This document shows positions 2,417-55,535 of a stretch of DNA of 64,000 bases, one piece after another (the stretch's first letter is position 1; every line of letters starts with the position of its first letter). The notes beneath the pieces were generated by a model that worked only from the letters and a program-made list of their open reading frames with translations, was not told the origin of the DNA and searched no databases. The position numbers and the translations under genes are program-made. Source of the DNA: an uncultured Gammaproteobacteria bacterium (lineage in GTDB: Bacteria > Patescibacteriota > Patescibacteriia > Magasanikbacterales > UBA10003); contig CAYIOJ010000001.1 of assembly GCA_964365025.1 (NCBI GenBank), positions 42,475-106,474 on the forward strand. The letters run 5' to 3'.

Positions 2417-2426
2417 ATATTTTTAT

Positions 2427-3383: not shown

Positions 3384-3385
3384 TA

Positions 3386-4309: not shown

Positions 4310-4318
4310 ATATAAAAA

Positions 4319-9008: not shown

Positions 9009-10670
9009 TTATTTCAACGAAACCAAAACAAATTGATTAACTAAATTTCTCCAAAATACGGATTCTTTTAAAATTTTTTCGTATTTTATTTTGTATTCAC
9101 GATATTTCTCATCTAAATTCATTGTCAAGCAACATTTGGCTGCAAAATAATAAGCAAACGCGTGGTCATTCTTTACTCTTATTGTGTTTTCAAATCCTTT
9201 CAGCGCCACAGCATAATTTCCTAACTTAAAATCATTGTTCTCTACAAAATTGAGTTCAAGATTCAAAAAATAAGCTTTTTCTTGTATATATTCTGGTGTA
9301 AAATCTTCGGTTTCCACAATTGCCCTCTTAAAATCACAATTAATATAATCACCCTTAATATAATTATTTTTTAGGCAAACATCAAGCATTTCGCTACCAA
9401 CAAGAGGAGTGGCCATACTAATTCTAAACCATGATCCATTGAGAGTTTTTAAAAATGAACGCGCGTCTTCTATATCCTGTTTTGTTTCACCGGGCAATCC
9501 TATAAGTATCGACACATCAGAAACTATTCCCAATTGACGACAATCATCAACTACGCGTTTTACAATTGAAAGATTGAGCGGTTTATGCATAATTTCTTTT
9601 AAAACTCTATTACTGCCTGACTCTACTGACAAAACAAGATTATTTACCCCAATACTTTTAAGAGCCTCGAGCATTTTCCTATCTAAAGCATATAGAGCCA
9701 GCGAATTCGGAAAAAAGGCCGTCAAACGCAAATTTTTTATTATATCAAAAATTTCATAAACTCTTTTTTTGTCAGCCATTAAATGATCATCAAAAAAAAT
9801 CAATGTCTCTGCGCCATATTTATCTTTCAACCGCTTAAAATCCTCTTTGACGCGTTTCATACTATAATAACGCATTTTTCTTCCATGTACAGTGTATGAA
9901 GAACAGAAACTGCAACGATGAGGGCACCCTCTAGAGATCATAACCGACATCCCTTTTCTTTTTCTTTCTTCTTCAAGTGGAAAAAGTGAAAGTATGGGAT
10001 TTATACCGTAATCCTTTATGTTCAGAATATCGTAATCTAAAAACGGTATCTCATCTAGGTCTTGAACAAAATCATGTTCAAAAGATTGTTTATTTTTTAT
10101 TTTCTTATTTGTGATCCAAGATAAATTATTTTCTAAAAAATAAACTTTATCTTCTGCCATCATTAATCCTAAAAACGGTTTTTCTCCCTCACCATAACAA
10201 AGAGCGTCAAAGCAATAACTCTCTTTAAAAATCTGATTAAACATGTTGGTTGGAATTCCTCCTCCAGCTACTATCAAAGCGCTGGGAAATAAGTCACGCA
10301 CAGCCTGTCCTAAATCAATCATATTGTGATACGCCGGCGCAAATAATGTCGATATACCCACTACGGTTGGTTTAAAATCGATCCACTCTTTTTTAGAAAA
10401 AAAATCGTAAAACAATTCTATAAAAGAACCGAAACTAAAATCTACCATCTTATTTAAAACGACATTAAAATCAATAAATTTTATCTCTATTGAATTTATA
10501 TTTTTTTTTAAATAGGAGCTTATGGATAAAATACCTAAAGGCATTTCGGTCACCAAACTGCCGAAACTCCCATTTTTTTTAAACACCACACGCTCATTAA
10601 AATCTGGTTTTACAAAACTTGTATAAGTTATGTACGGTGGTACTATAAACAATAAACGGTCCGTTATCAT
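9009..10670 (-). CDS. Cobalamin (B12)-binding radical SAM enzyme (class B, putative C-methyltransferase).
   Basis: N-terminal B12-binding-like Rossmann region, then MISRGCPHRCSFCSS (Cx3Cx2C); 553 aa. Confidence 0.65.
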   Translation of the reverse strand: MITDRLLFIVPPYITYTSFVKPDFNERVVFKKNGSFGSLVTEMPLGILSISSYLKKNINSIEIKFIDFNVVLNKMVDFSFGSFIELFYDFFSKKEWIDFKPTVVGISTLFAPAYHNMIDLGQAVRDLFPSALIVAGGGIPTNMFNQIFKESYCFDALCYGEGEKPFLGLMMAEDKVYFLENNLSWITNKKIKNKQSFEHDFVQDLDEIPFLDYDILNIKDYGINPILSLFPLEEERKRKGMSVMISRGCPHRCSFCSSYTVHGRKMRYYSMKRVKEDFKRLKDKYGAETLIFFDDHLMADKKRVYEIFDIIKNLRLTAFFPNSLALYALDRKMLEALKSIGVNNLVLSVESGSNRVLKEIMHKPLNLSIVKRVVDDCRQLGIVSDVSILIGLPGETKQDIEDARSFLKTLNGSWFRISMATPLVGSEMLDVCLKNNYIKGDYINCDFKRAIVETEDFTPEYIQEKAYFLNLELNFVENNDFKLGNYAVALKGFENTIRVKNDHAFAYYFAAKCCLTMNLDEKYREYKIKYEKILKESVFWRNLVNQFVLVSLK

Positions 10671-25214: not shown

Positions 25215-26648
25215 TTATTTATCTTCTGTGCTAGAAAAAATATTTTTGGACTTGAACAATTTAGGGAAGAAAGTCTGCAAACCGAAATAAATATCCAAAA
25301 ACAAAGTTTTATTTTTAAGAGACAACCACACTCTTCTTAAAAGATAACGCGGATTAAAATAAAAATTTTGATAATACTTTTCTAATATCTCATGTGACAA
25401 GTTGGGATGATTGTAAATATCACCGGCCTGATGAAGGTTGTAAAGACGCCAGTCGCGACTCTTAATCAACCCCTGACTCTCACATTGAGAGTACAACTCC
25501 GTGCCTGGGAAAGGAACGGTGATGGTAACTTTGGCATAATCCGGTACCAAATCCAAGGCCAGTTTAGTGGTCTTCTTCAAACTTTCTTCGGAATCAGCCG
25601 GCAAACCAAACATGAAAAAGCCAATACTTTCCAGTCCCGCCTTTCTGACCAGCTTCATAGCGGCATAACTATCTTCAACTTTAATATTTTTGCAAATGGA
25701 ATCCAGACTGGCCTGATCACCGGATTCAAATCCAATTGATACTTGATATAGCCCCGCCCGCTTGGCTAAATTGAGAAACTCCAAATCCATTGAATCAACT
25801 CGCAATCCGGCCGACAGTGTCCATGGAAATTTCAAATTTCTTTGAATTATCAGTTCACAAATTTTTTTCGCCCTCGCCATATCTGTAGTGAACATATCAT
25901 CAAGAATACGGATCTCCCTTATGCCGCAATTTAACATATATTCAATTTCATCTACCGCCAACTCAACCGAACGGGCGCGAAAACGCCGGCCAAAAATATT
26001 TTTGTTACAAAAAGTACAGCCAAAAACGCAGCCGCGACTGCTCATATAATTACACATCGGACTCAAACGATTTAAAACGCGCGGACATTTATATCTTTTT
26101 AGGTCAAACAAATCCAACGCTGGGAATGGCAGCCAATTCAAATCGTTAGTCGGAAAACGCGGCGGGGTGTTTAAAATTTGTCCTTCTTCTTTATAATAAA
26201 TACCGGCAACTTCTTTTAATGGCTTTTCTTTTAAAATATCAACCAGTGTCAGTTCACCCTCGCCATAAATTAAAATTTCAAAATGAGAATCTCGCAATGT
26301 TTCAACGGGTAGTGCGGTGGCATGTGGTCCGCCAATAATCAATTTTGTTCTATTGCCCAAGTGATCTTTAATAATTTTACTTAAAGTGACGGCTTCAAAA
26401 AAAAGCGGGGTGGTGGCGGTTAAGCCAATAAATCGCGGATTATATTCGTCCAATTTTTTGTGCAAAAGCCGATATGGATTAAGCTCAATGCCTAAATCAA
26501 TAATTTTAACCTTAAATCTTTCTTTACGCGCCGCCGCGGCGAGATAAGCAAAAGACAACAAAGGATAATTTTGCGTCGCGGCATTAATCCTGGTGCCGGA
26601 ATAGGAAGAAAAAGCCGATGGTAAGTTGATCAATAATAAATCCACCAT
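25215..26648 (-). CDS. Cobalamin-binding radical SAM enzyme (class B).
   Basis: N-terminal B12-binding-like domain, then MSSRGCVFGCTFCNK (Cx3Cx2C); 477 aa. Confidence 0.65.
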   Translation of the reverse strand: MVDLLLINLPSAFSSYSGTRINAATQNYPLLSFAYLAAAARKERFKVKIIDLGIELNPYRLLHKKLDEYNPRFIGLTATTPLFFEAVTLSKIIKDHLGNRTKLIIGGPHATALPVETLRDSHFEILIYGEGELTLVDILKEKPLKEVAGIYYKEEGQILNTPPRFPTNDLNWLPFPALDLFDLKRYKCPRVLNRLSPMCNYMSSRGCVFGCTFCNKNIFGRRFRARSVELAVDEIEYMLNCGIREIRILDDMFTTDMARAKKICELIIQRNLKFPWTLSAGLRVDSMDLEFLNLAKRAGLYQVSIGFESGDQASLDSICKNIKVEDSYAAMKLVRKAGLESIGFFMFGLPADSEESLKKTTKLALDLVPDYAKVTITVPFPGTELYSQCESQGLIKSRDWRLYNLHQAGDIYNHPNLSHEILEKYYQNFYFNPRYLLRRVWLSLKNKTLFLDIYFGLQTFFPKLFKSKNIFSSTEDK

Positions 26649-36696: not shown

Positions 36697-38043
36697 TTAC
36701 AAAAACAAACTTAATCGCTCTTTAATCAACGGTAAAAAATAAGCCGCATCAAACAATGAAACAACCAGTAAAACAATGGCCACTATCTGTAAATATTTTT
36801 TAACCGTTTTCCTATCATCCAAAAGTCTACTTAAAAAATATCCGCCAAAAATAGCCAAAAAAGGATATATTTGAAAACGATAGCGTGATTGTACAACGGT
36901 CAAAAGCAGAGGGAGTGGCGCCAGCAAGGCAAAAACAATAAAATAATTGAACAAGACTTTTCGCTCTCGCGAAAGAGCAAATAACCCGCTATACCCGCTT
37001 ATAAAAAATACCGCACCCCAACCGAGCGAAGAGAGGACAAACACTAATTGCTTGATTCCGCTCTGATAAAACCAAAAACCCATTGGTCTAATCAAACTAA
37101 AAAATCTTATAATTCTCAAAAAAAATAGTTTAATGAAAACCAAAGGATAATTAAGCGCAAAAAATAAAAATTCTTGCGTCGCTCTTTCCTTAATTCCATT
37201 GAAACCTTGAAGCCTGACATATTCATCAAAAGGATTGAAACCGCCTGCAATCTGTCCGCCCCGGGCAACCAAAGTATTACCAATCCATAAATTAAAAGAG
37301 CCGGTTAAGGTCGTTAGAATAAATTGATGATAAACTAAATAGTTACGGATAGACCATGGAGTGAGAATGGCGATAAACGCGAACAAAAAGACGCTACCGT
37401 TTCGTATTTCTTTTTTAAAGACATAAAAAAATAAAATCGGCAGTAAAAACAAAATAACAGTCGGACGAGTCAAAACAGCCAAACCAGCAATCGCCCCTAA
37501 GAGCGCGCTTTGGTTAACCGATCTATTTTTAGAATTATAAATTCTAACAAAAACAAAAATAACAAGAGTAATAAAAAATAAATACAATGTTTCAGTCATA
37601 AGCATGGCGGAAATTTCAATCAAATCCGGGTGCAAACCAAAAAGCATGGCCGCCAAAAGTCCCGCTTTCTCATTTTCAAAAATTTTCCGCGCGATCAAAA
37701 ACAACAGCCAGGCAGTTAAAGCGTGCAATAAGGCCTGAATTACCCACACTGCTTCGTGGTGGTAACCAAAAATCTTATAAATGCCGGCTAAAAAAAATTC
37801 ATACGCCGGGCCAGCCCGCACAATGGCTGTGTCAGATTCATAACTGTTATTCCTATTTTCCCGATAACCAAATCCATCGGCTAAATTTATCGCGATCTGA
37901 TCGTAAGCCCTCGTATCAACTACTGGCCTAATGCGGTGGATAAAAGAATAAATTAGTGGAATCAAAAACGACAGAAGTATTGTCGCCACCAACACCCAAC
38001 GCAATGAAAAAATGTTTTTATTTCTTAAATTACACCAATCCAC
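36697..38043 (-). CDS. GT-C fold membrane glycosyltransferase (ArnT/PMT, GT39/GT83-like).
   Basis: 448 aa, about 11 TM, hydrophilic loop after TM1 with acidic residues; immediately downstream of a DPM1-like GT2. Confidence 0.4.
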   Translation of the reverse strand: MDWCNLRNKNIFSLRWVLVATILLSFLIPLIYSFIHRIRPVVDTRAYDQIAINLADGFGYRENRNNSYESDTAIVRAGPAYEFFLAGIYKIFGYHHEAVWVIQALLHALTAWLLFLIARKIFENEKAGLLAAMLFGLHPDLIEISAMLMTETLYLFFITLVIFVFVRIYNSKNRSVNQSALLGAIAGLAVLTRPTVILFLLPILFFYVFKKEIRNGSVFLFAFIAILTPWSIRNYLVYHQFILTTLTGSFNLWIGNTLVARGGQIAGGFNPFDEYVRLQGFNGIKERATQEFLFFALNYPLVFIKLFFLRIIRFFSLIRPMGFWFYQSGIKQLVFVLSSLGWGAVFFISGYSGLFALSRERKVLFNYFIVFALLAPLPLLLTVVQSRYRFQIYPFLAIFGGYFLSRLLDDRKTVKKYLQIVAIVLLVVSLFDAAYFLPLIKERLSLFL

Positions 38044-38051
38044 ACTCTAAA

Positions 38052-38777
38052 TTAATCTAATAAATTAAACTTGATAATAGACCAGATGGCGCAAAAAGCG
38101 TCTCTGGCGCCTATTTTTTTACCCTCGGCGTAAGTTCGACCGTAATAAGAAATACCAACCTCATAGAGCCGCAACTTTTGTTGAGCGATGCGAGCTGTTA
38201 TCTCCGGCTCAATATTAAAACGATTGGCGCGCAGATACGGTAAAATTTTCTGCAAAGCTTCACGAGTAAATGCTTTATATCCTGTCTCCATATCCGTCAG
38301 GTTCAAATTAGTTAACATGTTAGAAAAAAAGGTCAAAAATTTATTAGCCACAGAATGCCAAAAAAACAAAACACGATGCGGACGGTCTCCCATAAATCTT
38401 GATCCATATACCACGTCAGCTTTTCCATCAAATAAGGGCTCCAACAACAGTGAATATTCTTTTGGATCATATTCTAAATCAGCGTCCTGCATGATAATAA
38501 AATCACCAGTGGCTAAAGAAAAACCTCGGCGCAAAGCCGCTCCCTTGCCAATGTTTTTATCCTGATAAACTATCTTATATTTATCACCCAGAATTTTTAA
38601 AATTTCACGGGTTCCATCTACAGAAAAATCGTCAACAATTATTATTTCTTTTTCTATTGATTCCAAATTCACCGATTCTACTTTTGAAATAATATTAAGA
38701 ATGGTGTTTTTCTCGTTGTAAACAGGGATTATGATTGATAATTTGGACATAAAATTATTCTTTCTTGGCCAAAACAT
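38052..38777 (-). CDS. GT2 glycosyltransferase, DPM1-like polyprenyl-phosphate sugar synthase.
   Basis: [14 protein letters not shown]...[11 protein letters not shown]...QDADLEYDP. Confidence 0.65.
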
Positions 38778-39536: not shown

Positions 39537-40601
39537 TTATGGTGTCTTAAAATAATCTAAAATTTTGCCCACGACATTCTCTAAATTATGATTCTTCTTT
39601 ACAAATTCAATGCCTCTCTCGTTGTGGAGTATTATACCGGAATTATAAATTTTTTCAATTGTTTTAGCCAATTCTTGACAATCTCCTTCGGGAAAAGTAT
39701 AAACCAAGCCTTCTTTGGCCAAATCGACAAAAGCTTCGCTTGAAGTTATGACCATGCGACCCGAGGCCAAGGCTTCCAAAACCACCTTATCAACACTACC
39801 CGTGCGGCTAGTATGGATAAGAATATGATGGTTCAGATAAATGTTGGACATTTGTTCTGGTGGATACGAGTGAAAAGAAAATCCTGCCTCTGTTATTTCT
39901 CGTCCCATTTTAAGCAATTTGTCACGATATTGTTCGTCTCTCGGATCCGCAATATCTCCAGCAAAATGATATATTATGGTTTTAAGACCCACTATCTTTT
40001 TGCTTTGCAATTCTGCTACCGCTCGTATAACTGTTTCCCAATCCTTAGATGGAGTGACACGACCAACACTCAACAAAAATAGGGTGTCCCTGTGTTTTAA
40101 TACTTGGTGTTCATCAAGATTATTATAATTAAGTGAAGCTCTAGGAATTCCGTGTCCCGTTATTTCAACTTTCTTGCTCGACAGTCTAAAACTTTCTTTG
40201 GAGGCGGTAAAAATTTTATCCACTATTTTTTCGGCTAATTTCAACTGCCAACTGACGGCCTTATGTGTATACCAAAGGGCTATCTTTTTATGCCACAATT
40301 TCCACAATAAACCACCCAATAAAACATACTCTTTATTCATGTGCACAAAAACTCCGTCGTAATTATTTTTATATTTGAAAATATACTTATAAAAATTCCA
40401 AAGATATTTTATCCTGGACGCGTCCCTTTCTTTACCCAATGAAATAACCTTGACATTGGGCGGCAGACAATATTCGCCTTTCTGCAAACAAACAACAACA
40501 ACTGATTCGTAGTGTTTGGCAAATTCTTCAATCCAGCGATGAAAAAAACCCAAATTATTATCATTTATATCCACCTTCTGTGTTAATATTAGTAATCTCA
40601 T
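39537..40601 (-). CDS. GT4 family glycosyltransferase (start probably MRLLILTQ at 40601; the ORF extends to 40664).
   Basis: GT-B architecture; ...TSRTGSVDKVVLEALASGRMVITS matches the EX7E region. Confidence 0.5.
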   Translation of the reverse strand: MRLLILTQKVDINDNNLGFFHRWIEEFAKHYESVVVVCLQKGEYCLPPNVKVISLGKERDASRIKYLWNFYKYIFKYKNNYDGVFVHMNKEYVLLGGLLWKLWHKKIALWYTHKAVSWQLKLAEKIVDKIFTASKESFRLSSKKVEITGHGIPRASLNYNNLDEHQVLKHRDTLFLLSVGRVTPSKDWETVIRAVAELQSKKIVGLKTIIYHFAGDIADPRDEQYRDKLLKMGREITEAGFSFHSYPPEQMSNIYLNHHILIHTSRTGSVDKVVLEALASGRMVITSSEAFVDLAKEGLVYTFPEGDCQELAKTIEKIYNSGIILHNERGIEFVKKNHNLENVVGKILDYFKTP

Positions 40602-41416
40602 ACAAGGGTTGCCTCCAATCCTTTGACAAATGGAGTTGCCACAACATTCAGCAATTTTTGCCAATCATCACTTTTATAAACTTCATCGCTTAACAAAGTT
40701 TTAATTTGCCACAATGTCAGTGGGAAGAACGGCAAAAAAGAAATTACCCGAATCAAACCGGAAAAAAATACAGGAGCATTGATTTTCCAAAATTTATAAC
40801 CAAAATTCTTTAAATAGTTTAAAATTGTCTCAAAACTAATAATTTCTAGCCCAGCCATATTTATAATCTGATTTGCTGACGAATCAATGCAGGCGCTGAT
40901 TGCCATGACCAAATCTTCAATAAAAATCGGCTGTAAACGAAAATTTAAAACCGGCATTATCAGTGCAATTCTGGCCAATTTAAGCAAAAACCAGACATTT
41001 TTATTGTCGCCCGGGCCATAAACCATGCTGGGGCGCAAAATGATATAAGGCAGGCCGGAACCCAAAATATTTTTTTCCGCCGCTCTTTTAGAATCAATAT
41101 AGGGGTCATTTAGTTTTGATAAAACCCTGATACTGGACAAAAAAATTAAACGCCGAACATCCAACCGCCGTCCCATTTCAATGATATTATTGGTCCCGTC
41201 AACATTAACTCTTTCAATAAATTTTTTATTTTTATGGCCAATGATAGCCGCCAAATGGATCAGGGCGTCTATTTTTTCATCACTACAAAAACTCTGTGTA
41301 TCTTCTTTTTTAGAAACATCGCCAGTAAATAAAACAACTTCATTCCCATTCTTTTTAAGTTGTTCGACAAGATACGAACCGATAAACCCTGTCCCGCCTG
41401 TAATTAAAATGGCCAT
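40598..41416 (-). CDS. Short NAD-dependent epimerase/dehydratase family protein.
   Basis: MAILITGGTGFIGSYLVEQL; 272 aa. Confidence 0.5.
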   Translation of the reverse strand: MAILITGGTGFIGSYLVEQLKKNGNEVVLFTGDVSKKEDTQSFCSDEKIDALIHLAAIIGHKNKKFIERVNVDGTNNIIEMGRRLDVRRLIFLSSIRVLSKLNDPYIDSKRAAEKNILGSGLPYIILRPSMVYGPGDNKNVWFLLKLARIALIMPVLNFRLQPIFIEDLVMAISACIDSSANQIINMAGLEIISFETILNYLKNFGYKFWKINAPVFFSGLIRVISFLPFFPLTLWQIKTLLSDEVYKSDDWQKLLNVVATPFVKGLEATLV

Positions 41417-42759
41417 AAAAAATTTTCAAAAAAATATTTGGGCATGTGCCTTGCTAGATAGGCAGGGCGGAAATAATAAGACACAAATGCCCATTCTTTT
41501 AGTCTTAACAACTCTTCTGTTTTTAAATTTTTGTGTTTAAAAATTGGGGTATATTCATCATATTCTTCCCAATTTCGATTAAAAATCATTTTTTCTTTTT
41601 CCAACTTTTCAAAAAATCTAGTGCCGGGATAAGGCGTGACTATTGCAAATTGAGCCACTAATGTATTCAATCTCTTGGCATATCTGATTGTCTCTAAAAT
41701 TGATTCTTTTGTGTCGCCTTCCAAACCGATTAAATAAAACGCCGCCACTGTTATTCCCAGTTTATGGCAATAAGCCACCATTTCATCCTGATAAGCCTCT
41801 ACAACCGGTAAACGTTGAGACTTTTTTAAAATCTCGGGATTAGACGATTCAATTCCCACATTGATATTTCTCAATCCCGCCCGATACATCAAATTCAGTA
41901 AATCCTTATCAACTTTGTCAAGTCTGGTTTCGCACGACCAAATTATTTTTAAATTTTCCAATATCAATCTTTCAGCGAATTCTCGCGTTCTTTGCTTGCT
42001 ACAAGTAAAAAGCGGGTCCCTAAAATCAATCGCCATAACGCCATAATTATTTTTCAACTCTTTTATTTCTTTTATTATGTTGTCTATCGTTCTTAAACGC
42101 AATCTGGCGCCGGCCAGGAGCGGATAAGCGCAATAATATGAGCAGGTATGCGGACAGCCGCGAGATGCCAACATTACCGTAACCGGTTTTTTGTTTAACG
42201 CCGGCGAATAAGAATATTTTTTTAAAGAAAACGAACTCCAATCCGGAAACGGTAAATAATCCAAATTTTCAACTTGGCCCGCCTCAAAAATTCCGCTGGG
42301 CAATTCCTTTTGATTAACAATTTTTATGGCCGCCGCTTCGGCCTCACCCCTTATCACAAAATCGGCGTCATTAATAAAAAAATCCGGCAAGGCCGAGGCG
42401 AAAGTTCCATAAACTCCCACCTTGAGGCCTCTGCTTTTTATAATCCTCGCCACTTCACATTCGTGAAAACAATCAACAATAGAAGACGGGACCAGCGCCA
42501 AATCTGCAGTAATTGTTTTAATTTCCAATCCACGCCCCACCTCTACGCGTTCAACTTCCCAGCCGGCTTGTTTGAAAATAGCGACGAGATAAGCCGATGT
42601 AATTTCCGGCAAAACAACGCTCTTCTTTTTAACATATTCAAAAATTCTAGCCCGCCAAGAATTACCGATCCATGTGCCCGTGCCCATACCGCCGGCCAAA
42701 TCTTTATTAATGCACTTCTTGCTATTCCGCGCTTGAATTTCAAATAATGCAACTTTCAT
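41404..42759 (-). CDS. B12-binding radical SAM-like enzyme with a non-canonical Cx3Cx3C cluster motif.
   Basis: MLASRGCPHTCSYYCAYP; DNA checked at 42130-42165. Overall similarity to the other three B12-binding radical SAM proteins (N-terminal B12 domain, same size class). Confidence 0.5.
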   Translation of the reverse strand: MKVALFEIQARNSKKCINKDLAGGMGTGTWIGNSWRARIFEYVKKKSVVLPEITSAYLVAIFKQAGWEVERVEVGRGLEIKTITADLALVPSSIVDCFHECEVARIIKSRGLKVGVYGTFASALPDFFINDADFVIRGEAEAAAIKIVNQKELPSGIFEAGQVENLDYLPFPDWSSFSLKKYSYSPALNKKPVTVMLASRGCPHTCSYYCAYPLLAGARLRLRTIDNIIKEIKELKNNYGVMAIDFRDPLFTCSKQRTREFAERLILENLKIIWSCETRLDKVDKDLLNLMYRAGLRNINVGIESSNPEILKKSQRLPVVEAYQDEMVAYCHKLGITVAAFYLIGLEGDTKESILETIRYAKRLNTLVAQFAIVTPYPGTRFFEKLEKEKMIFNRNWEEYDEYTPIFKHKNLKTEELLRLKEWAFVSYYFRPAYLARHMPKYFFENFLWPF

Positions 42760-43736
42760 ATTTTCAACATTGCCTCAACAAACTTATCTTTATCACCCAC
42801 CGGCACAATCGTAACTTTCGAACCTGGTTTTAATTCATAATTGGCCACACCCACGTCGGTCATAATGACCGGCATGCCAACCGCGGCCGCTTCCATGGCC
42901 ACCAAACCATATCCTTCGCTCAGGCTGGGGAACAAAACACAATCAGCGGTTTTTAAATAACCATATGGATCCTCTGTCCAATTCTGTAATTTTATATTGT
43001 CATCTAAATTATTACTTATCACTTGACTCCTAATTTTTTGTTCTTCTTCACCCCGACCAACTATTAATAATAGATAATTTTTCTGTTTTATAACTTTTTT
43101 AAAAATTTCTATTAACCATGGAATATTTTTTACAGGGTCAAGCCTGCCTAAAATCAAAAATATCTTTGCATAGCCTGGATATTTACTGCGCAAATCTATT
43201 TCGAAAACAAGAGAAAGATGTCTAATCAGCTCCGGATCATTTTGTATTGATCTAACTATTATTTTACTCTCTGCAACACTCAGACTTAATAAACTTTGTT
43301 TTATTCTTTCTCCCGCCACTCTGATTTTATCCGCATGTCTCAAAATAAATTTAGCCATGCATAATTTAAACCATTGATTCTTATAATAACCGCCAAAAAA
43401 ATCACCGTGTACCTGCACTTCTAATTTAATTTTAAATTTACGCTTCAGACACCAACCAACCAAACCTGTAAAAAAGGGATCCTGTGTGGTAATTTCCTCA
43501 ATATTTTTTTCTTTAATTAACTTTTTCCCAATTTTCTTTAAACGACAAAATTGCTGTAATTTATTTCCCCCTGTTGATTGTATGTGAACAGTGGAACTTA
43601 AATCAAAGACCTCCCCTTCTCTGCTTGGAATAATAATAAATAATTCATCTTCTTTCCCATACTCAATCATGCGTCTAGTAACAATGGAATCTTTATTTAA
43701 AATATTTTCGTCCAGACTGATCATTAAAATCCTCAT
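42756..43736 (-). CDS. GT4 family glycosyltransferase.
   Basis: FPSLSEGYGLVAMEAAAVGMPVIMTDVG (EX7E motif). Confidence 0.6.
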   Translation of the reverse strand: MRILMISLDENILNKDSIVTRRMIEYGKEDELFIIIPSREGEVFDLSSTVHIQSTGGNKLQQFCRLKKIGKKLIKEKNIEEITTQDPFFTGLVGWCLKRKFKIKLEVQVHGDFFGGYYKNQWFKLCMAKFILRHADKIRVAGERIKQSLLSLSVAESKIIVRSIQNDPELIRHLSLVFEIDLRSKYPGYAKIFLILGRLDPVKNIPWLIEIFKKVIKQKNYLLLIVGRGEEEQKIRSQVISNNLDDNIKLQNWTEDPYGYLKTADCVLFPSLSEGYGLVAMEAAAVGMPVIMTDVGVANYELKPGSKVTIVPVGDKDKFVEAMLKI

Positions 43737-43739
43737 AAA

Positions 43740-45185
43740 CTACTTTGTTACAAACTTTTTTGCTAATTTAAACTCCACCGGCCACCAAAAAAATTTCAAC
43801 TTCCATCGCAATTTACAAATTAAAATAAATCCTAATTTCAAAATTCTACTGGCACTGACCGAGGAACCCAGCGCGCTCTTGACGCTATGCGCGCCAAAAC
43901 GCACATAGGCCTCCATTGATTCAACAAAATTTTTATCTTTTACCCAAGGAAAATTTTTCACCGCTAAATAGCTCAATTGATTTTGTGCCAGATGCGCCCA
44001 TTCATCTAACGTGCGCGGCGCTTGCCAACCAGCAACCAGACACTCTTCATACAAAGTGGAACCTGGATAAGGACGAAAAGCTTGCGGCCCAATAATTTGC
44101 ACTTTTTCGCTTAATTTAGCCAATTTATCAATTAAATCAAGGGTCATCATCATATCATTTTTTTCCTCTCCTGGCAAGCCAATCATAAATGAATATTGGG
44201 GAATTATATCATATCGCCAGCACATCTTAGCCGAATTGATAATTTGCTCCGGAGTGATGTGTTTTTTAATTTTTTCCAAAATTCGCAAACTGCCTGATTC
44301 TGCTCCAAAAGATAATAAATAACAACCCGACCGCCGCAACCGCTCCATTAATTCATCGTCAATCATTCCCGGCCGAATATAATCTGCCCTAACTGTTGTC
44401 TCCCACGGTATAATTAAATTTCGCTCAATCATGCCACTGACTATTTCACGCGCGCGATTAATGTCAACAAAAAAATTTTCATCCCAAAAACGCAACTTTT
44501 TATCTTTAAAATATGCCTTGCTCTTAATAATTTCCAAATCACACAAAACTTGTTCGGCCGTTCTCATTCTCCAACTATTTTTTAAAATGGCATTAATACA
44601 AAAAGTGCAAAAATGCGGACAGCCGCGCGAAGTTAACGATGGTATCAAACGCAAATTCCGCAAAATTTCAGGCGCCACCAAATCCCAATTAAACAAAGGC
44701 ATTTGGGCCGGATCATGCAATGCTCGCGGAGAATTAATAATAATTTGCCCGTCTTTTTTATAAGCAATGCCTTTGACATCTTGCCACTGCCGACCTTGAG
44801 CAATTTCCAACATGGTTATTTCCCCTTCCCCAAAACAAACCGCGTCTACCAAATCGTGCTTGGCTGTCTGATGAATAAAAAATGTTGGATGCGACCCGCC
44901 CCAAACAATTTTACAAAACGGCTTCAGCTGTCGGATTTGTTTAGCAATTTCAATTGCTTGTGGCAGCTGCATTGTCATCACGGACAATCCGGCGCACTCA
45001 CAATCAACAATTTCGCGTTGAAGCATCTCCAAATAATTTTTCTGCCTGACGCAATCAATCAATTTAACAGAAATGCCCTGACTGTCTAAAAAAGAAGCAA
45101 TACTTAGCAAGCCGACAGAAACAGAACTGTCATAATTTTCCTTGACGATATTAAATTGCGGATTGATAAGCAAAATTTTAGCCAT
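43740..45185 (-). CDS. Cobalamin-binding radical SAM enzyme (class B).
   Basis: N-terminal B12-binding-like domain; LTSRGCPHFCTFCIN (Cx3Cx2C); 481 aa. Confidence 0.65.
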   Translation of the reverse strand: MAKILLINPQFNIVKENYDSSVSVGLLSIASFLDSQGISVKLIDCVRQKNYLEMLQREIVDCECAGLSVMTMQLPQAIEIAKQIRQLKPFCKIVWGGSHPTFFIHQTAKHDLVDAVCFGEGEITMLEIAQGRQWQDVKGIAYKKDGQIIINSPRALHDPAQMPLFNWDLVAPEILRNLRLIPSLTSRGCPHFCTFCINAILKNSWRMRTAEQVLCDLEIIKSKAYFKDKKLRFWDENFFVDINRAREIVSGMIERNLIIPWETTVRADYIRPGMIDDELMERLRRSGCYLLSFGAESGSLRILEKIKKHITPEQIINSAKMCWRYDIIPQYSFMIGLPGEEKNDMMMTLDLIDKLAKLSEKVQIIGPQAFRPYPGSTLYEECLVAGWQAPRTLDEWAHLAQNQLSYLAVKNFPWVKDKNFVESMEAYVRFGAHSVKSALGSSVSASRILKLGFILICKLRWKLKFFWWPVEFKLAKKFVTK

Positions 45186-46329
45186 GCTGATTAACTTCTT
45201 TTAAGAAATTGACTGTTTGTTCAATCACATCGCTCCACACGAATTTTCTTAAACCCTGACGACAAGCGTCTTGAAAAAGAATACTCTGCCAATAAGAATC
45301 AGACAAAATATTTTTAATAGCCGCCTTAATTTGTTCACGATTATTATATTCCACCAGCAAACCATTTTTTCCGTTTTCAATCACTTCCGGATTGCCGCCG
45401 CAATTACTTGCAATAATCGGCTTGCCCAAACTTAAAACTTCCAAAATCACGTGGGACAAACCTTCATACTGCGAATTAAGAATAAAAACATCGGCTGTTT
45501 GATAGTATTCAAAAATTTTATCCAGAGGCGCGCGGCCGATAAAAAACACTTCATGTTTCAGCTTATATCCGTCTCTTATGGCCTCCAGACGCCGTCTATC
45601 CGATCCGTCGCCGATAATCAATAATTTCAAAGACGGAAATTCCTGACGCAAGCCGCTTAACACATCTATAAGTCCGTCAAAACCTTTCCAAGGCGCTAAG
45701 CGGCCGGCAGTCACAATTAATTTATCATCATTGGCTATTCCTAATTTCTCTCGCGTTGCCATTTCATCAGCAATTCGCTCCGGTAAAAAATCAACCGCGT
45801 TGTAAATCACTTGAAGTTTTGCCAAATCAACACCGATACGCACCGCTAAATCCTTCATAAAATTACTTACCGCCACAACCTTATCCGCTCCGCGCAAGAT
45901 TTTTGTTCTTAAATTTTTCAGCAGAAAAATTTTGGGACCATAACTGCCATCTTGAAAAGATAAAATATCATCTTTAGTAATACCCGCGTTGGCGGCTATT
46001 TCCCAAGCGCTGTCGCCGGCAAAACGCACTGCTAATTTTTTATTTAAAAACACTTTGCCAACGAGCCAAGACAAAAAACCGGCTGTATAAAGATCAAAAG
46101 TATAAATAATATCGGCCTGACCGGCTAGATTAAATAAATTCCACAGAAACAAAAATTTATTTGATACTTTAACGACACGATAACTTCTAATCTTTCTATC
46201 ATTCTGACCAAAAGCCAAAACAGTGATTTCAATGCCCTGCGTTTGTAAATCTGCAGCCAACTGTTCAATTATTCTCGCCGGTCCGCCGATATCCGGCGGA
46301 AAAATCCCTGAAGTAATCAATACTTTCAT
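45178..46329 (-). CDS. GT4 family glycosyltransferase (start probably MKVLITSG at 46329; the ORF extends to 46395).
   Basis: NSQYEGLSHVILEVLSLGKPIIASNCGG (EX7E). Confidence 0.6.
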   Translation of the reverse strand: MKVLITSGIFPPDIGGPARIIEQLAADLQTQGIEITVLAFGQNDRKIRSYRVVKVSNKFLFLWNLFNLAGQADIIYTFDLYTAGFLSWLVGKVFLNKKLAVRFAGDSAWEIAANAGITKDDILSFQDGSYGPKIFLLKNLRTKILRGADKVVAVSNFMKDLAVRIGVDLAKLQVIYNAVDFLPERIADEMATREKLGIANDDKLIVTAGRLAPWKGFDGLIDVLSGLRQEFPSLKLLIIGDGSDRRRLEAIRDGYKLKHEVFFIGRAPLDKIFEYYQTADVFILNSQYEGLSHVILEVLSLGKPIIASNCGGNPEVIENGKNGLLVEYNNREQIKAAIKNILSDSYWQSILFQDACRQGLRKFVWSDVIEQTVNFLKEVNQHG

Positions 46330-47252
46330 AATAAAATAATCAACACCATTACTAGCCACACTAACAAGGTGATTTGCAGAGGCCGATCGCGCCACAAATC
46401 ATCAGCTGGGCCGTCGTCGCTCGTACTTTTTTTATCAAAAATATACAAATAACGAAACAAACCATACAAAACCACTGGTACTGTCAGAATCAGCCATTGA
46501 CTCTGCCAAGTATTAAAAGTGTATAAAGTATAAGTAATTAAAATCGCGGGCAGTACCACCGTATTCATCTGATTGAGCATGCCCAAAGAGTAATCAACCA
46601 GCACGCCGCGGGCCATAGAACCGACTGAAACCAATTCGCTTTTTCTTTTGCCGATGGCTAAAAACAAAGTCAGAAAAAAAGTGCATAGAATTAACCAGGG
46701 AGAAAAAAACACTCCGATTACTATCGCGCCGGCAATAACTCGCAAAACAAAACCCAAAGCAATGCAAATGATATCAATCATAACCGCGCGCTTCAACCAA
46801 AAACTATAAATCAAATTAAGAACAACATAACCAGCTACTATCCAGAAAAAAATTAAACCCAGTTTCCAGCTTATCAATAAAGCCGCGGCTATCAATAAAA
46901 TTCCCCCAATGGCAGCGGTCAAACGAGAAATTTTTGCTGATGCAACAGGTCGATTTTTTTTTGATGGATGCTCTTGATCATTTTTAAAATCAACAACATC
47001 ATTAATCAGATAAACGCCGCTCGAAGCCAAGCAAAATAAAATAAAAGCGAACAAACTCAATCGTATGGCCGGCCAATCAGTAAATTTCTTGGCAAAAATC
47101 AACGCGGCAAAAATAAAAAAATTTTTAATCCAGTGGCGGGGGCGCAAAGAAATAAATAAGTATTTCAAAAACATAGTTATTCGTGGCGCGCAAATATCTT
47201 TTTTTTGCTGCGGACTGTCGCCGCGACTGCAAAAAAGAAATTTGCGCGCCAC
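46326..47252 (-). CDS. UbiA-family prenyltransferase, decaprenyl-phosphate phosphoribosyltransferase-like (polyprenyl-P pentose synthase).
   Basis: LINDVVDFKNDQEHPSKKNRPVAS (the NDxxDxxxD motif of UbiA) and about 8 TM. The start is uncertain (GTG 47252 or ATG 47174). Confidence 0.55.
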   Translation of the reverse strand: MARKFLFCSRGDSPQQKKDICAPRITMFLKYLFISLRPRHWIKNFFIFAALIFAKKFTDWPAIRLSLFAFILFCLASSGVYLINDVVDFKNDQEHPSKKNRPVASAKISRLTAAIGGILLIAAALLISWKLGLIFFWIVAGYVVLNLIYSFWLKRAVMIDIICIALGFVLRVIAGAIVIGVFFSPWLILCTFFLTLFLAIGKRKSELVSVGSMARGVLVDYSLGMLNQMNTVVLPAILITYTLYTFNTWQSQWLILTVPVVLYGLFRYLYIFDKKSTSDDGPADDLWRDRPLQITLLVWLVMVLIILL

Positions 47253-48211: not shown

Positions 48212-48273
48212 ATTTCTTGCTTAAAAAAGCTTTTTTTAGTATACTCAATTTAGCTCAAAAAGTCAAACGCGAT

Positions 48274-49392
48274 ATGACTGAAAATAAACAAAAGATACTC
48301 TATATTGTCACTCAAGCCGAATGGGGCGGGGCGCAAAAGTATGTTTTTGATTTGGCAACGAATTTGACAGATGAATTTGATGTAACTGTAGCTGCGGGCG
48401 CGGACGGCTCTTCGCGTGAATTACTAGACAAACTTGTCGGCGCTGGAATCAAAAACTTTACTTTCAAACACCTTAAACGCGATATTAATTTGTGGCGCGA
48501 TATTTTGGCAATTTTTGAAATCGCCAAATTTTTGAGGCAAAATCATTTTGACATTATTCACTTGAATAGCACTAAGGCCGGAGTAATTGGAACAATGGCG
48601 GCGCGTCTAAACAAGCGCCGACCAAAAATTATCTACACCGCGCACGGCTGGGCATATTTGGAGCCACTCCCCTTTTACAAACGCTGGCTGTATTTGATAA
48701 TGGAAAAAATTGCCGCACGATTGCGCGATTACACAATTATTTTGTCTGAAAAAGAAAAACAAATCGCGCTCCAGAACGGCACGGCCAAGTCAAAGGCCGT
48801 TTCGGTTATCCCCAATGGCATAAATTTTAATAATTTACATTTTTTCGCCAAAGAAGAATCTAGACAAAAATTAAATCTGGACCAAAATAAAATAATCATC
48901 GGCGCGATCGCTAATCTTTATAAAACCAAAGGATTAGAGTATCTGATGAAAGCAGTGGCAGAATTAAAAGCGCAATTAATAATTATAGGCGAAGGGCCTG
49001 AAAGAAAAAGTCTTGAAGAAAAAATTAAGCAAAAAAACATAACCGACCAAGTGGTTTTAGCCGGGCACCTGCCGGAAGCGGCAAAATTTATCCCGGCCTT
49101 TGATATTTTTGTTCTGTCTTCAATCAAAGAAGGATTCCCCCACACTCTACTGGAGGCGATGGCCGCGGGCTTGCCAATTGTCGCCACCGCGGTTGGAGCA
49201 ATTCCTGAAATTTTAGAAAACCAAAAAACCGGCTTGATTGTGCCGCCGGCTAATACTCAAGCTCTGGCAGGAGCAATCACCTCCCTTATAAAAAATCCTG
49301 AATTCGCTCAACAGTTGGGCATGAATGCTAAAGAGGCAATTAAAAAGTTTGGTTTGGTAACTACGATTGAAAAAACAAAAATGATCTATTAA
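48274..49392 (+). CDS. GT4 family glycosyltransferase (start taken at MTENKQKILYIV; the ORF opens at 48217).
   Basis: WGGAQKY N-terminus, SSIKEGFPHTLLEAMAAGLPIVATAVG (EX7E). This is the only plus-strand gene in the glycan locus. Confidence 0.6.
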   Translation: MTENKQKILYIVTQAEWGGAQKYVFDLATNLTDEFDVTVAAGADGSSRELLDKLVGAGIKNFTFKHLKRDINLWRDILAIFEIAKFLRQNHFDIIHLNSTKAGVIGTMAARLNKRRPKIIYTAHGWAYLEPLPFYKRWLYLIMEKIAARLRDYTIILSEKEKQIALQNGTAKSKAVSVIPNGINFNNLHFFAKEESRQKLNLDQNKIIIGAIANLYKTKGLEYLMKAVAELKAQLIIIGEGPERKSLEEKIKQKNITDQVVLAGHLPEAAKFIPAFDIFVLSSIKEGFPHTLLEAMAAGLPIVATAVGAIPEILENQKTGLIVPPANTQALAGAITSLIKNPEFAQQLGMNAKEAIKKFGLVTTIEKTKMIY

Positions 49393-52280: not shown

Positions 52281-55200
52281 ATGAAGTGCTTGCTGATACT
52301 GATGGCGCTGGTATTCGTGGTGATGACGGGGTGCTTTGACTATACCCCGCCGCCGAACAATGTGAGCGATACAACTGGCGATGTGTCGGCTAATGCTGAT
52401 TCGGATTCGCTGGATGTCAAAGGCGGCGGCTCCGGCGACGAGATGCCATTCAATCCGCCTCTGCCTGACGACACCAAGCCACTTTTGGTTGATACCGATG
52501 TGGCGTTGATTGATGGAGACGGCGACACTGTCGTGTCCGATAAAAGAGATGTCAAAAACTCGCTGGAAACAGACAGGACTGGTGAAACAACTAATCCGGT
52601 GGACACAACTGACAGCGCGGACGCGAAGGATGCTCTTGACATAGAGACAGCGGTTGTGCCACCTTGCGTGACCAATCCCTTGCTCTGCGCGGACGCACCA
52701 TCGACTCCGGACACGAAAATTGACAATGATGTCCCCACTACTACCGCCGAACCCCAAGCCGACGCCCCTGACACGCAAGACGCGCCAGATGCCGAGGCCG
52801 ACTCTGCTCTGCTCTGCCTTCCGAACTGCGCTGGCAAGCAGTGTGGTGACAACGGTTGCGGCGAGTCGTGCGGCGAGTGCCTGAATGGCTACGCGTGCAA
52901 CGCGGACTTTGTCTGCGAGTGCGTGGTGGGCTGTCAGATTCCGGCCGAGCCGACTGTTGATGCGGCAAATGCTGATGCCGACGCGACCACGACAGTCGAC
53001 GCCCATGCAGATATACTGCCCGGCGCGGATGCGACAGTGGAAACACCGTCAGGCGAAATAAAGTCGCCAATTGACGTGCCTGTAAACGCGGAACCTTCCG
53101 TAGACGCTAATGTCGCGGAGATTGCTGCGGCAGATGGCACGACTATCGCCGATGACACTAGTCCTGACGCCGGGCCAGACATCTTTGTCCAGCCCTGTGT
53201 GGCCAAGCCGAACATCTGCGACGACGGCAATGTCTGCACGGACGACTGGTGCGACATGGCCGATGGCTGTCTCCATATTAACAATACCGCGCCTTGCGAC
53301 GACGGCGACCAGTGCACCGAGAACGACGCTTGTCAAAACAGCATTTGCGCGCCGGGCCAGCCGTTGGTCTGCAATGACAGCAACGCTTGCACCGATGACT
53401 ACTGTCAGAATGGCGTTGGCTGTGTCTACGAATGGGTGTGTGAGTGCGCGTCTGATGCCGAGTGCAATGATTTGAACCCGTGTACCGACGACATCTGCGC
53501 AACGGGTTTCTGCGAGTATGCACTCAACTCTATCGTCTGCGACGACGGTAATGCCTGCACCAGCGTGGACATCTGCGTGTCCGGAGAATGCCTGGGGGTC
53601 GCATCGCTCAACTGCAATGACAACAACGAGTGCACTCTGGACGCCTGCGATCCGCAGAGCGGCTGCCACAACGAGCCGCAAACAGGAATGGCCTGCAATG
53701 ACGGCAATGCCTGCACCACCACAGACATCTGTGAAAAGGATGTTTGCGCTGGCGAGGCCACTGTCTGCGACGACCAAAATCCCTGCACAGACGACTCGTG
53801 CGATGAGCAGAGCGGTTGCGTGTTCACTCTCAACAACAGCAATCCTTGCGAAGACGGGAGCTTGTGCACAACAGACGATTTCTGCGACGCGGGCAAGTGC
53901 CAAGGCGGCCAAACGCTGAAGTGCAATGATGGCAATATCTGCACGGATGATGTCTGTCAACCGACACAAGGATGTGTCTATCTTGCCAATCAGGTGGGGT
54001 GCGACGACGGCAACGGCTGCACTATCGGTGATATCTGCGCGGATTCGGCCTGCGTCAGCGGGACGAATATCTGCGAATGCGCCACAGATGAAGATTGTGC
54101 CGTGGCTGAGGACAACAACCTCTGCAATGGCACGCTTGTCTGCGACACTAGCAAGATGCCATTCCAATGCGTCGTGAACCCTGACACCATCATCACCTGC
54201 CCCACTGCCTCTGACACCGTCTGTTTCAAAAACATTTGCCAGCCAACGAGCAGCGGCAAGTGCGAGATGGAAGCGGTGAATGAGGGAGGAGGGTGCGATG
54301 ATGGCAATGCCTGCGCCACAGGCGATGCCTGCTCCAAGGGTGTCTGCGCGGGAGCGAGCATCAAGTGCGATGACAGTAATGTCTGCACTGACGACTCCTG
54401 CGACCCGACCAGCGGATGTGTGTACACTCCCAACAACGCCGAATGCGCGGATGATGGCAATGAATGCACGACTGACATTTGTCAAAGCGGAAAATGCGCC
54501 CACCCGCCAACAACGGACGGCGCGGATTGCGATGACGGAACAGTGTGTACAATAGTTGACATCTGCCAAAGCGGCCAGTGCATAGGCATGGCTCCTCTGG
54601 ACTGCGATGACAATGACCAGTGCACGCTGGATATCTGTCACAAAGCGCTGGGATGCCAGCACAGCAAAATGGCCCTGAACGGCCAGATCTGCGACAACGG
54701 CGATGCCTGCACCACCGGCGACACTTGCCAGGACGGCGCGTGCCAAGCCGGAACGCAAACCTGCGAGTGCTACATCACGACTGACTGCGTCGGAATGGAA
54801 GACGGCAATTTCTGCAACGGAACGCTCGTCTGCAACACGGTTGTCATTCCGCACCAATGCGTCGTGAACCCCAATACCATCATCACCTGCCCAACCGCTT
54901 CAGACACCACCTGCTCTAAAAACACCTGCCAGCTAGCAAGCGGCAAGTGTGAGATGAAGGCGATGAATGAGGGGGTGGCCTGCGATGACGGGAATCCGTG
55001 TACCGAAACCGACATTTGCCAAAACGGCCAATGCAATGGCACGCCCAAACCCACCGGCACGGTCATCTTCCAAGATGACTTCAACGACGGTAACATTGAC
55101 GGATGGACAGTGAAAACATGGAACTCCTGTCCTAACTGCTCAATGTGTCCCTGCGACCTTCCCACAATCGTGGTTACCGACGAGACGCCGTTTTGGGTGA

Positions 55201-55535
55201 AAATGTCGCCTTTGGCCGGTAGCGGGCATGTGTTGTTCACAACACCCGCCACTTTACTGCCAAAAGGAGGTACAATCAACTTCCTCTTTGCCGGCGTCAA
55301 CTGTGCCGGCACTGGTAGCAACTGCGAAGTGCGCACTAGCAACGGAACCTTTCTTGGAAATGTCACCAGTTACAATTACTGCGCCACCCAACCGCCAAGC
55401 TGCCCAACAAAATTCAATATCATTGAGGATGAAAAAAACAGCCAAGTGGTGTTGGATTGTACCGGAGTATCCAACGGATCTTACAATGCTTGCGGCGCCA
55501 CTTACCTTGATGACTTTTCTATCACCTGCCCATAA
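52281..55535 (+). CDS. Secreted lipoprotein: acidic low-complexity N-terminal region, about 24 tandem cysteine-rich CxDxNxCTxDxC repeats (Dictyostelium CTDC-like), C-terminal beta-sandwich/lectin-like domain.
   Basis: MKCLLILMALVFVVMTGC (lipobox). Repeats such as CDDGNVCTDDWCD, CNDSNACTDDYCQ and CDDQNPCTDDSCD run from about aa 300-905, with two ~90-aa super-repeat copies (CVVNPDTIITCPTASDT...). C-terminus FQDDFNDGNIDGWT. Strongly GC-rich relative to its neighbours. Confidence 0.6.
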   Translation: MKCLLILMALVFVVMTGCFDYTPPPNNVSDTTGDVSANADSDSLDVKGGGSGDEMPFNPPLPDDTKPLLVDTDVALIDGDGDTVVSDKRDVKNSLETDRTGETTNPVDTTDSADAKDALDIETAVVPPCVTNPLLCADAPSTPDTKIDNDVPTTTAEPQADAPDTQDAPDAEADSALLCLPNCAGKQCGDNGCGESCGECLNGYACNADFVCECVVGCQIPAEPTVDAANADADATTTVDAHADILPGADATVETPSGEIKSPIDVPVNAEPSVDANVAEIAAADGTTIADDTSPDAGPDIFVQPCVAKPNICDDGNVCTDDWCDMADGCLHINNTAPCDDGDQCTENDACQNSICAPGQPLVCNDSNACTDDYCQNGVGCVYEWVCECASDAECNDLNPCTDDICATGFCEYALNSIVCDDGNACTSVDICVSGECLGVASLNCNDNNECTLDACDPQSGCHNEPQTGMACNDGNACTTTDICEKDVCAGEATVCDDQNPCTDDSCDEQSGCVFTLNNSNPCEDGSLCTTDDFCDAGKCQGGQTLKCNDGNICTDDVCQPTQGCVYLANQVGCDDGNGCTIGDICADSACVSGTNICECATDEDCAVAEDNNLCNGTLVCDTSKMPFQCVVNPDTIITCPTASDTVCFKNICQPTSSGKCEMEAVNEGGGCDDGNACATGDACSKGVCAGASIKCDDSNVCTDDSCDPTSGCVYTPNNAECADDGNECTTDICQSGKCAHPPTTDGADCDDGTVCTIVDICQSGQCIGMAPLDCDDNDQCTLDICHKALGCQHSKMALNGQICDNGDACTTGDTCQDGACQAGTQTCECYITTDCVGMEDGNFCNGTLVCNTVVIPHQCVVNPNTIITCPTASDTTCSKNTCQLASGKCEMKAMNEGVACDDGNPCTETDICQNGQCNGTPKPTGTVIFQDDFNDGNIDGWTVKTWNSCPNCSMCPCDLPTIVVTDETPFWVKMSPLAGSGHVLFTTPATLLPKGGTINFLFAGVNCAGTGSNCEVRTSNGTFLGNVTSYNYCATQPPSCPTKFNIIEDEKNSQVVLDCTGVSNGSYNACGATYLDDFSITCP
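53180..55020 (+). repeat. Tandem array of ~72-nt (24-aa) cysteine-rich coding repeats within the lipoprotein gene, including a diverged ~250-nt super-repeat (about 54060-54310 vs 54760-55000).
   Basis: Recurrent tgcgacgacggcaa(t/c)gcctgcacc... units; gtcgtgaaccctgacaccatcatcacctgcccc at 54170 matches gtcgtgaaccccaataccatcatcacctgccca at 54860. Confidence 0.55.

Follow-up and report, generated by a model that had tools for sequence, protein, structure and literature searches.

A CX3CX3C cluster motif of the AprD4 type in a radical SAM protein from a glycan gene island of an uncultured small-genome lineage

The radical SAM gene at 41404..42759 on the minus strand of the 64-kb window (the whole stretch of DNA that was analysed) codes for a protein of 451 residues in which the cysteines of the cluster loop are spaced CX3CX3C. 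This is almost certainly a genuine and functional cluster motif of the AprD4 type. It is neither an error nor a new kind of iron-sulfur site, and it is already known from AprD4. The protein belongs to a large uncharacterised family of probably sugar-modifying radical SAM proteins, AprD4-like in kind, that is found in uncultured lineages. Taken as a whole, the reading proposed here, with a confidence that falls somewhat short of even, is that of a SAM-cleaving, AprD4-like sugar enzyme with an AprD4-type cluster, whose keto product would be reduced by the SDR encoded beside it.

The cluster motif and its counterpart in AprD4

Read on the minus strand, the motif codons are TGT (42156-42154) CCG CAT ACC TGC (42144-42142) TCA TAT TAT TGC (42132-42130), which give C202-PHT-C206-SYY-C210. 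The span 42130..42156 given in the initial annotation is exact; the 42132 quoted in its text is where the last motif codon begins. The reading frame of the 451-residue ORF is intact. The Pfam Radical_SAM match (PF04055, 53.7 bits against a cut-off of 29.5) covers residues 199-360 (41680..42165, minus strand), and the motif lies at the start of this match, the usual site of the cluster loop. Three invariant cysteines are thus found at the radical SAM cluster position, with CX3CX3C in place of the canonical CX3CX2C. In an alignment of 86 family members C202, C206, Y209 and C210 are all invariant, so that chance is not at issue, and no further cysteine is invariant in that alignment. C202, C206 and C210 are inferred to be genuine ligands that hold the radical SAM [4Fe-4S] cluster. 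Other residues invariant in the core and just beyond it are F246, R247, D248, E277, G302, E304, G345, P376, P378 and T380.

A search of all PDB sequences is headed by 6FD2, the structure of AprD4 (E=2.8e-31), whose motif, C-PYP-C-RFY-C, aligns without a gap to the CPHTCSYYC of the query. In contrast, TsrM (CAYRCS-HC) and MgmA (CPGNCT-FC) each show a one-residue gap within the motif. The single-residue insertion in the loop is therefore real: it appears as one in-motif gap against the paralogs of the window, HpnJ, BchE, TsrM and MgmA. Because 6FD2 has the same spacing, CX3CX3C is already represented by a solved and characterised SAM-dependent enzyme. That this is the motif of AprD4 had been overlooked in the initial annotation. 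The AprD4 motif is said to have been explicitly called non-canonical by Lv et al. in JACS in 2016. Full-text literature on CX3CX3C or CxxxCxxxC together with radical SAM yielded only a passage on NifB and a thuricin peptide motif, neither of which concerns AprD4.

The likeness to AprD4 extends beyond the motif. A residue-level alignment of the core to 6FD2 brings out motifs common to both proteins, namely FRDP, CETR, GIES (GxES), IGLxxDT (IGLxxET/DT) and TPYPGT, the last of which (residues 375-380) lies just past the end of the Pfam core. An AlphaFold2 model made from the family alignment has a mean pLDDT of 95.2 and a pTM of 0.92, with a pLDDT of about 93 for residues 201-210. When the PDB was searched with Foldseek, 6FD2 ranked first, with a TM-score of 0.82 in both directions and with both the N-terminal domain and the barrel covered, while cobalamin-dependent enzymes, MiaB and RimO gave 0.53-0.66; this search is biased towards AprD4, there being no solved structure of HpnJ or BchE. 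The predicted structure therefore has the fold of AprD4, an enzyme whose N-terminal Rossmann-like domain is cobalamin-free, and the match includes that domain.

Sequence identity to AprD4 is about 21% overall. Within the core it is 32.5% to AprD4, 35.7% to HpnJ and 31.7% to BchE. The NCBIfam models for HpnJ, BchE and AprD4 score 165, 139 and 129 bits, all far under their cut-offs; the AprD4 model itself, NF033070, reaches 129.4 bits against a cut-off of 500. Since the core identities are similar, the HpnJ and BchE models rank higher and the structures of these two enzymes are unsolved, the protein is best described as having an AprD4-like architecture, with no specific sister relationship proven.

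The N-terminal domain (about residues 1-160, 42280..42759, minus strand) is Rossmann-like and resembles B12-binding domains. It carries a conserved loop, NKDLAGGxGT, and D20, G23, G26 and G32 are invariant. Pfam B12-binding (PF02310) has no match at E<=0.01 in the 451-residue protein, and it does match 51 of the 86 family members, with a best E of 2.7e-9; by sequence the domain is homologous to B12-binding domains. The label B12-binding used in the initial annotation is thus not supported for the window protein. The AprD4-like branch may make no use of cobalamin, although the B12-binding signature in so many relatives keeps such use conceivable. AprD4 itself does not bind cobalamin, though it clusters with B12-dependent radical SAM enzymes, as a 2026 review describes (PMC12931638).

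Conservation and origin of the extra residue

A search of 5.8 billion clustered proteins gave 1983 relatives at E<=1e-5. The best 120 of these homolog clusters span 44-100% identity and derive from ENA, JGI, NCBI and Logan assemblies. In 94 of them CX3CX3C occupies the same position, and the tyrosine before the third cysteine is invariant. Carriers of this spacing reach down to about 45% identity; the remaining 26 clusters are of the CX3CX2C type, and every one of them lies at 44-48% identity. When 50%-identity representatives were searched exhaustively, 43,903 matched at E<=0.001, and true CX3CX3C was found in 41 of the 149 matches listed, the query's own cluster set aside. P0253 and P0264 (C...C..CC), as well as P0232, were false pattern matches for CX3CX3C and were recoded. 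Across the radical SAM superfamily CX3CX3C spacing is rare, and the initial annotation was right to that extent; within the protein's own family the term does not apply.

The extra residue can be located precisely. Each of the 109 canonical relatives has its alignment gap at residue 208, which in the window is Y208 (TAT, 42136..42138, minus strand), beside the identical TAT of the invariant Y209. Residue 208 is almost always aromatic or histidine in the 77 CX3CX3C members (Y in 32, F in 19 and H in 19, that is 70 of 77). At the 19 listed loci codon 208 is TAT, TAC, TTT, TTC or CAC and is followed by TAT or TAC, and the extra codon is seen at the DNA level, with varied codons, in 14 or 15 non-duplicate loci besides the window. 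Judged from these sequences, the residue probably arose by duplication of the tyrosine codon before the third cysteine (TAT TAT), followed by single-base drift.

Both spacings clearly coexist inside one family, and the canonical relatives share the family and the gene cassette with the CX3CX3C members. Neighbour-joining trees of a simple distance type, from which the motif region was removed, required 11 changes between CX3CX3C and CX3CX2C for 186 sequences and 7 for the 89 closest sequences, and the minimum over 100 bootstrap replicates was 7 and 5, respectively; noise inflates such counts. Variation at positions 205 and 213 and in the N-terminal loop (21-29) follows the motif state, a correlation that is confounded by phylogeny.

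Several relatives have also been observed on plasmids. A tblastn match on a Streptomyces clavuligerus plasmid is unannotated and has the canonical motif CPFKCSFC, and a match on an Acetoanaerobium plasmid is likewise unannotated. A Lawsonia plasmid relative has canonical spacing and is paired with methyltransferases rather than an SDR. Source databases often label members of the family 'BchE'.

Among the window ORFs of at least 150 residues that were scanned there are seven further radical SAM genes, each of which has CX3CX2C: four of the SPASM type and three with both B12-binding and Radical_SAM matches. The latter, all on the minus strand, lie at 9009..10670 (CPHRCSFC) and 25215..26648 (CVFGCTFC), which serve for comparison only, and at 43740..45185 (CPHFCTFC, canonical). 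They are the three class-B paralogs with CX3CX2C that the initial annotation had set beside the present gene, and its description of them is borne out.

The SDR partner and the gene cassette

The radical SAM gene is closely packed between its neighbours. Its end is overlapped by 13 nt by the start of an SDR gene (40598..41416, minus strand), whose 272-residue product belongs to the PF01370 Epimerase family and has a GTGFIG NAD(P) motif, S94/95 and Y106-xxx-K110; the catalytic motifs of this SDR (GxxGxxG, S/YxxxK) are intact. Upstream lies a GT4 glycosyltransferase gene (42756..43736, minus strand), whose stop overlaps by 4 nt with the start of the radical SAM gene. Further members of the cassette, both of which recur elsewhere, are a small GT2 resembling polyprenyl-phosphate sugar synthases (38052..38777, minus strand; 120 bits with the AglJ model, below the cut-off of 325) and a PMT_2 (GT-C) glycosyltransferase (36697..38043, minus strand).

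The pairing with an SDR is found well beyond the window. A comparison of 34 non-redundant related loci, which span Patescibacteria, Aenigmatarchaeota, Nanoarchaeota, Woesearchaeota, Omnitrophota, Chloroflexi, Acidobacteria, Planctomycetia and others, showed an SDR homolog directly adjacent to the radical SAM ortholog in 24; at the other 10 it is absent from that place. Adjacency occurs with either spacing, in 11 of 15 CX3CX3C loci and in 13 of 19 CX3CX2C loci (including L039, which has a split radical SAM gene). A GT2 of about 230 residues, with homologs counted at 150 bits or above, is present in 16 of the 34 loci and a PMT_2 GT-C in 8, and many have a second radical SAM gene, often of the CPGRCTFC type. 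On a Giovannonibacteria contig (L002) the pair is flanked by a recombinase upstream and a protease downstream, and sugar genes begin only some kb beyond these direct neighbours, an arrangement that suggests that the radical SAM and SDR genes form a two-gene module. An apparent fusion of the two at another locus (L037) proved to be a scaffold gap, visible as a run of X. The radical SAM family is common in DPANN archaea.

The 64-kb window is a glycan island with its genes on one strand, including NeuB, TPP enzymes, nucleotidyltransferases, methyltransferases, many glycosyltransferases and a UbiA-family protein. The setting thus differs from that of AprD4 (PDB 6FD2, NF033070), an enzyme of apramycin biosynthesis. 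The resemblance to AprD4 lies in the CX3CX3C spacing, the core motifs and the two-domain fold; its context is aminoglycoside biosynthesis, with a paromamine-type substrate, whereas the window gene belongs to a glycan/glycolipid island in the genome of a small-genome, uncultured lineage, and there are no 2-deoxystreptamine or aminoglycoside genes among the scanned window ORFs of at least 150 residues. The SDR of the window is of an extended, atypical PF01370 type, and its pairing is likened to that of AprD3 by analogy.

The small GT2 and the PMT_2 GT-C presumably resemble three-component lipid-carrier glycosylation systems, in which a GtrB/ArnC-type GT2 acts with a GT-C such as ArnT or PMT; the likeness is one of gene neighbourhood. 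To our knowledge no radical SAM step on a lipid-linked sugar is known from such systems.

Proposed chemistry, alternatives and significance

AprD4 is a SAM-dependent radical SAM diol dehydratase that is partnered by an NADPH-dependent reductase, AprD3 (PMC5461906). The window protein most likely cleaves SAM reductively to a 5'-deoxyadenosyl radical, which would abstract a hydrogen atom from a carbinol carbon of the sugar. By analogy with AprD4/AprD3, the hydroxyl on the neighbouring carbon would then be lost from the radical intermediate, a 1,2-diol dehydration that leaves a keto-deoxy sugar, and the translationally coupled SDR, with NAD(P)H, would reduce the ketone, so that the net result would be deoxygenation to a deoxysugar. 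The substrate is probably a polyprenyl-phosphate-linked sugar, as suggested by the recurrence of the small GT2 and the PMT_2 GT-C in the cassette, and the GT-C would later transfer the sugar outside the membrane. This specific sequence of dehydration and reduction is offered tentatively, as a possibility that may well prove wrong.

The same cluster and the same SAM cleavage could instead serve a radical ring contraction like that of HpnJ or calditol synthase, which would turn a lipid-linked hexose into a cyclitol. HpnJ (TIGR03471) is the top curated family at 165 bits and shares the class-B-like two-domain layout, and BLASTP aligns it to an annotated HpnJ in 391 columns at 28% identity (query residues 72-433). 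The frequency of the family in DPANN archaea fits this idea as well. HpnJ is encoded beside the glycosyltransferase HpnI, and its substrate is an amino sugar linked to a lipid (PMC13459092). However, the 165 bits fall well below the HpnJ cut-off of 577.6, the HpnJ motif is a canonical CRSRCTFC, and neither hopanoid genes nor hpnK were found in the window scan. In addition, the ring-contraction mechanism proposed for HpnJ requires no reductase (PMC13459092), and no SDR pairing is seen in the HpnJ locus examined, so that the conserved SDR partner would be left unexplained; ring contraction is accordingly regarded as unlikely. BchE (TIGR02026), the anaerobic Mg-protoporphyrin IX monomethyl ester cyclase, is similar to the window protein to about the same degree (139 bits). 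It differs in its canonical motif, CPFTCSFC, and in its tetrapyrrole context, which is absent at the window locus. BchE has been proposed to be cobalamin-dependent, and adenosylcobalamin may participate (PMC12931638). The HpnJ and BchE sequences used for comparison were taken from annotated plasmid records.

Another use of a conserved radical SAM and SDR pair would be epimerisation, in which the radical SAM protein oxidises a sugar hydroxyl and the SDR then reduces the resulting ketone from the opposite face. Such a pair would be the anaerobic equivalent of DprE1/DprE2, which epimerise polyprenyl-phosphoribose. The GT-C transferases within the cassette are in keeping with it, as is the UbiA-family protein encoded four genes upstream, which scores 236.6 against a cut-off of 234 for decaprenyl-phosphate phosphoribosyltransferase. 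However, UbiA is not among the recurrent cassette genes of the other loci, and the nearest characterised relative is a dehydratase and not a dehydrogenase. Radical SAM dehydrogenases typically have auxiliary cluster cysteines, and none are conserved in the 86-sequence alignment. Epimerisation is thus rather improbable.

The protein might also belong to the cobalamin-dependent class-B radical SAM methyltransferases, with a cluster loop that has simply drifted in length. The class-B methyltransferases (TsrM, TokK, CysS, MgmA and OxsB) have the same domain order, a Rossmann-type domain followed by the barrel. There are weak sequence and fold matches to many class-B methylases, three true class-B paralogs occur in the same island, and the N-terminal domain is related to B12-binding domains in the relatives noted above. 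This reading is given a low probability. A TsrM-like use of the cluster, without cleavage of SAM, had been raised in the initial annotation, and TsrM is indeed among the distant sequence and fold matches; its spacing is canonical, however, its model (TIGR04428) gives 38.4 bits where the cut-off is 500, it matches the fold much less closely than AprD4 does, and such a mechanism is very improbable. Finally, an artefact of sequencing or assembly, for which the TAT TAT tandem would be a place where a 3-nt slip could happen, or a non-functional site with some other downstream cysteine as third ligand, is excluded in practice, because the spacing is conserved across independent assemblies at 45-100% identity, the codons vary from locus to locus in an intact frame, and C210, which pairs with the third cysteine of AprD4, is invariant as no other downstream cysteine is.

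The AprD4-like dehydration and reduction can be placed in a wider, more speculative setting, which is more apt to fail than to hold. The radical SAM-SDR pair, the GT2, the second radical SAM protein and PMT_2 might together form a widespread, uncharacterised module of Patescibacteria, DPANN archaea and Omnitrophota, used for radical deoxygenation or a related redox edit of a polyprenyl-phosphate-linked sugar before its transfer to the surface; the loop would have switched repeatedly between CX3CX2C and CX3CX3C, with the extra residue neutral or tunable. If true, AprD4-type chemistry would for the first time have a role beyond the making of antibiotics, and a radical SAM enzyme would for the first time be seen to act on a sugar bound to a lipid carrier. 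Current understanding is not overturned; the value lies in how the cassette is conserved and how the loop varies in length rather than in the motif.

For annotation, class-B-like radical SAM proteins that have a CX3CX3C loop should not be marked as erroneous or as having a defective cluster site; the loop points instead to the AprD4-like branch. For enzymology, close relatives with and without the extra residue in one and the same cassette offer a natural test set for loop variation. For microbiology, the cassette of radical SAM, SDR, GT2 and GT-C genes is a testable lead to the surface-glycan chemistry of uncultured small-genome bacteria and archaea.

Cassettes with either form of the cluster loop

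Cassettes of the Patescibacteria type are found in three related loci (L028, L029 and L034), where the SDR, GT2 and PMT_2 genes are closely similar to those of the window (224-354 bits). The radical SAM genes of these loci have canonical spacing of the cluster-loop cysteines and score only about 375 bits. Both versions of the loop therefore fill the same cassette slot.

The N-terminal loop of the AprD4-like window protein, NKDLAGGxGTxT (residues 18-32; about 42664-42708, minus strand), is strongly conserved. In the family alignment D20, G23, G26 and G32 are invariant, and at residues 21-29 the members with CX3CX3C show systematic differences from those with CX3CX2C. This N-terminal loop may be in contact with the cluster loop or the substrate.

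Split and fused relatives

In locus L039, from a Saccharibacteria MAG, the ortholog (3995-5568) is in two ORFs, 3995-4774 and 4840-5568, with the SDR still downstream; either an assembly error or a frameshift/pseudogene accounts for the split. In L008, the rSAM-SDR pair is adjoined by an Aenigmarchaeota carbamoyltransferase of 904 aa (2229-4943, minus strand), whose intein/LAGLIDADG matches sit between its two Carbam_trans_C matches.

Giant fusions of several radical SAM modules also occur among the relatives of the window protein (P0163, P0179, P0181, P0192, P0210 and P0234). For example, P0163 (939 aa) joins a canonical module (CPYHCRFC) to a CX3CX3C module (CPYACRYYC), P0181 is 2633 aa long, and four CX3CX2C motifs occur within the 2096 aa of P0234.

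The glycan island and other genes of the window

Positions 746-49392 form a single glycan island of nearly 50 kb, in which all genes are on the minus strand except a GT4 gene (48217-49392, plus strand). Its eight radical SAM genes comprise three B12-type, four SPASM-type and one AprD4-like, and GT2/GT4 and methyltransferase genes are numerous. It also contains NeuB-cupin, TPP/E1/transketolase-like enzymes, SIS, a PfkB-cytidylyltransferase fusion, AsnB and YfhO. With the TTG start listed for it, the GT4 ORF at 39537-40664 (minus strand) shares 67 nt with the SDR gene; its real start is probably further downstream.

No tRNA genes were found across the 64 kb. The sole large plus-strand gene in its part of the window (52281-55535) encodes 1084 aa built from more than 20 Cys-rich repeats of the pattern CxDxNxCTxDxC (Pfam Dicty_CTDC, 104 bits). 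The long minus-strand ORFs that it overlaps, e.g., 53049-54857, have no Pfam match and are probably spurious.

The UbiA-family protein encoded at 46326-47252 (minus strand) scores 236.6 bits against NF008977 (decaprenyl-phosphate phosphoribosyltransferase; cut-off 234), a score that hints at a polyprenyl-phospho-pentose pathway in the lineage of the window.
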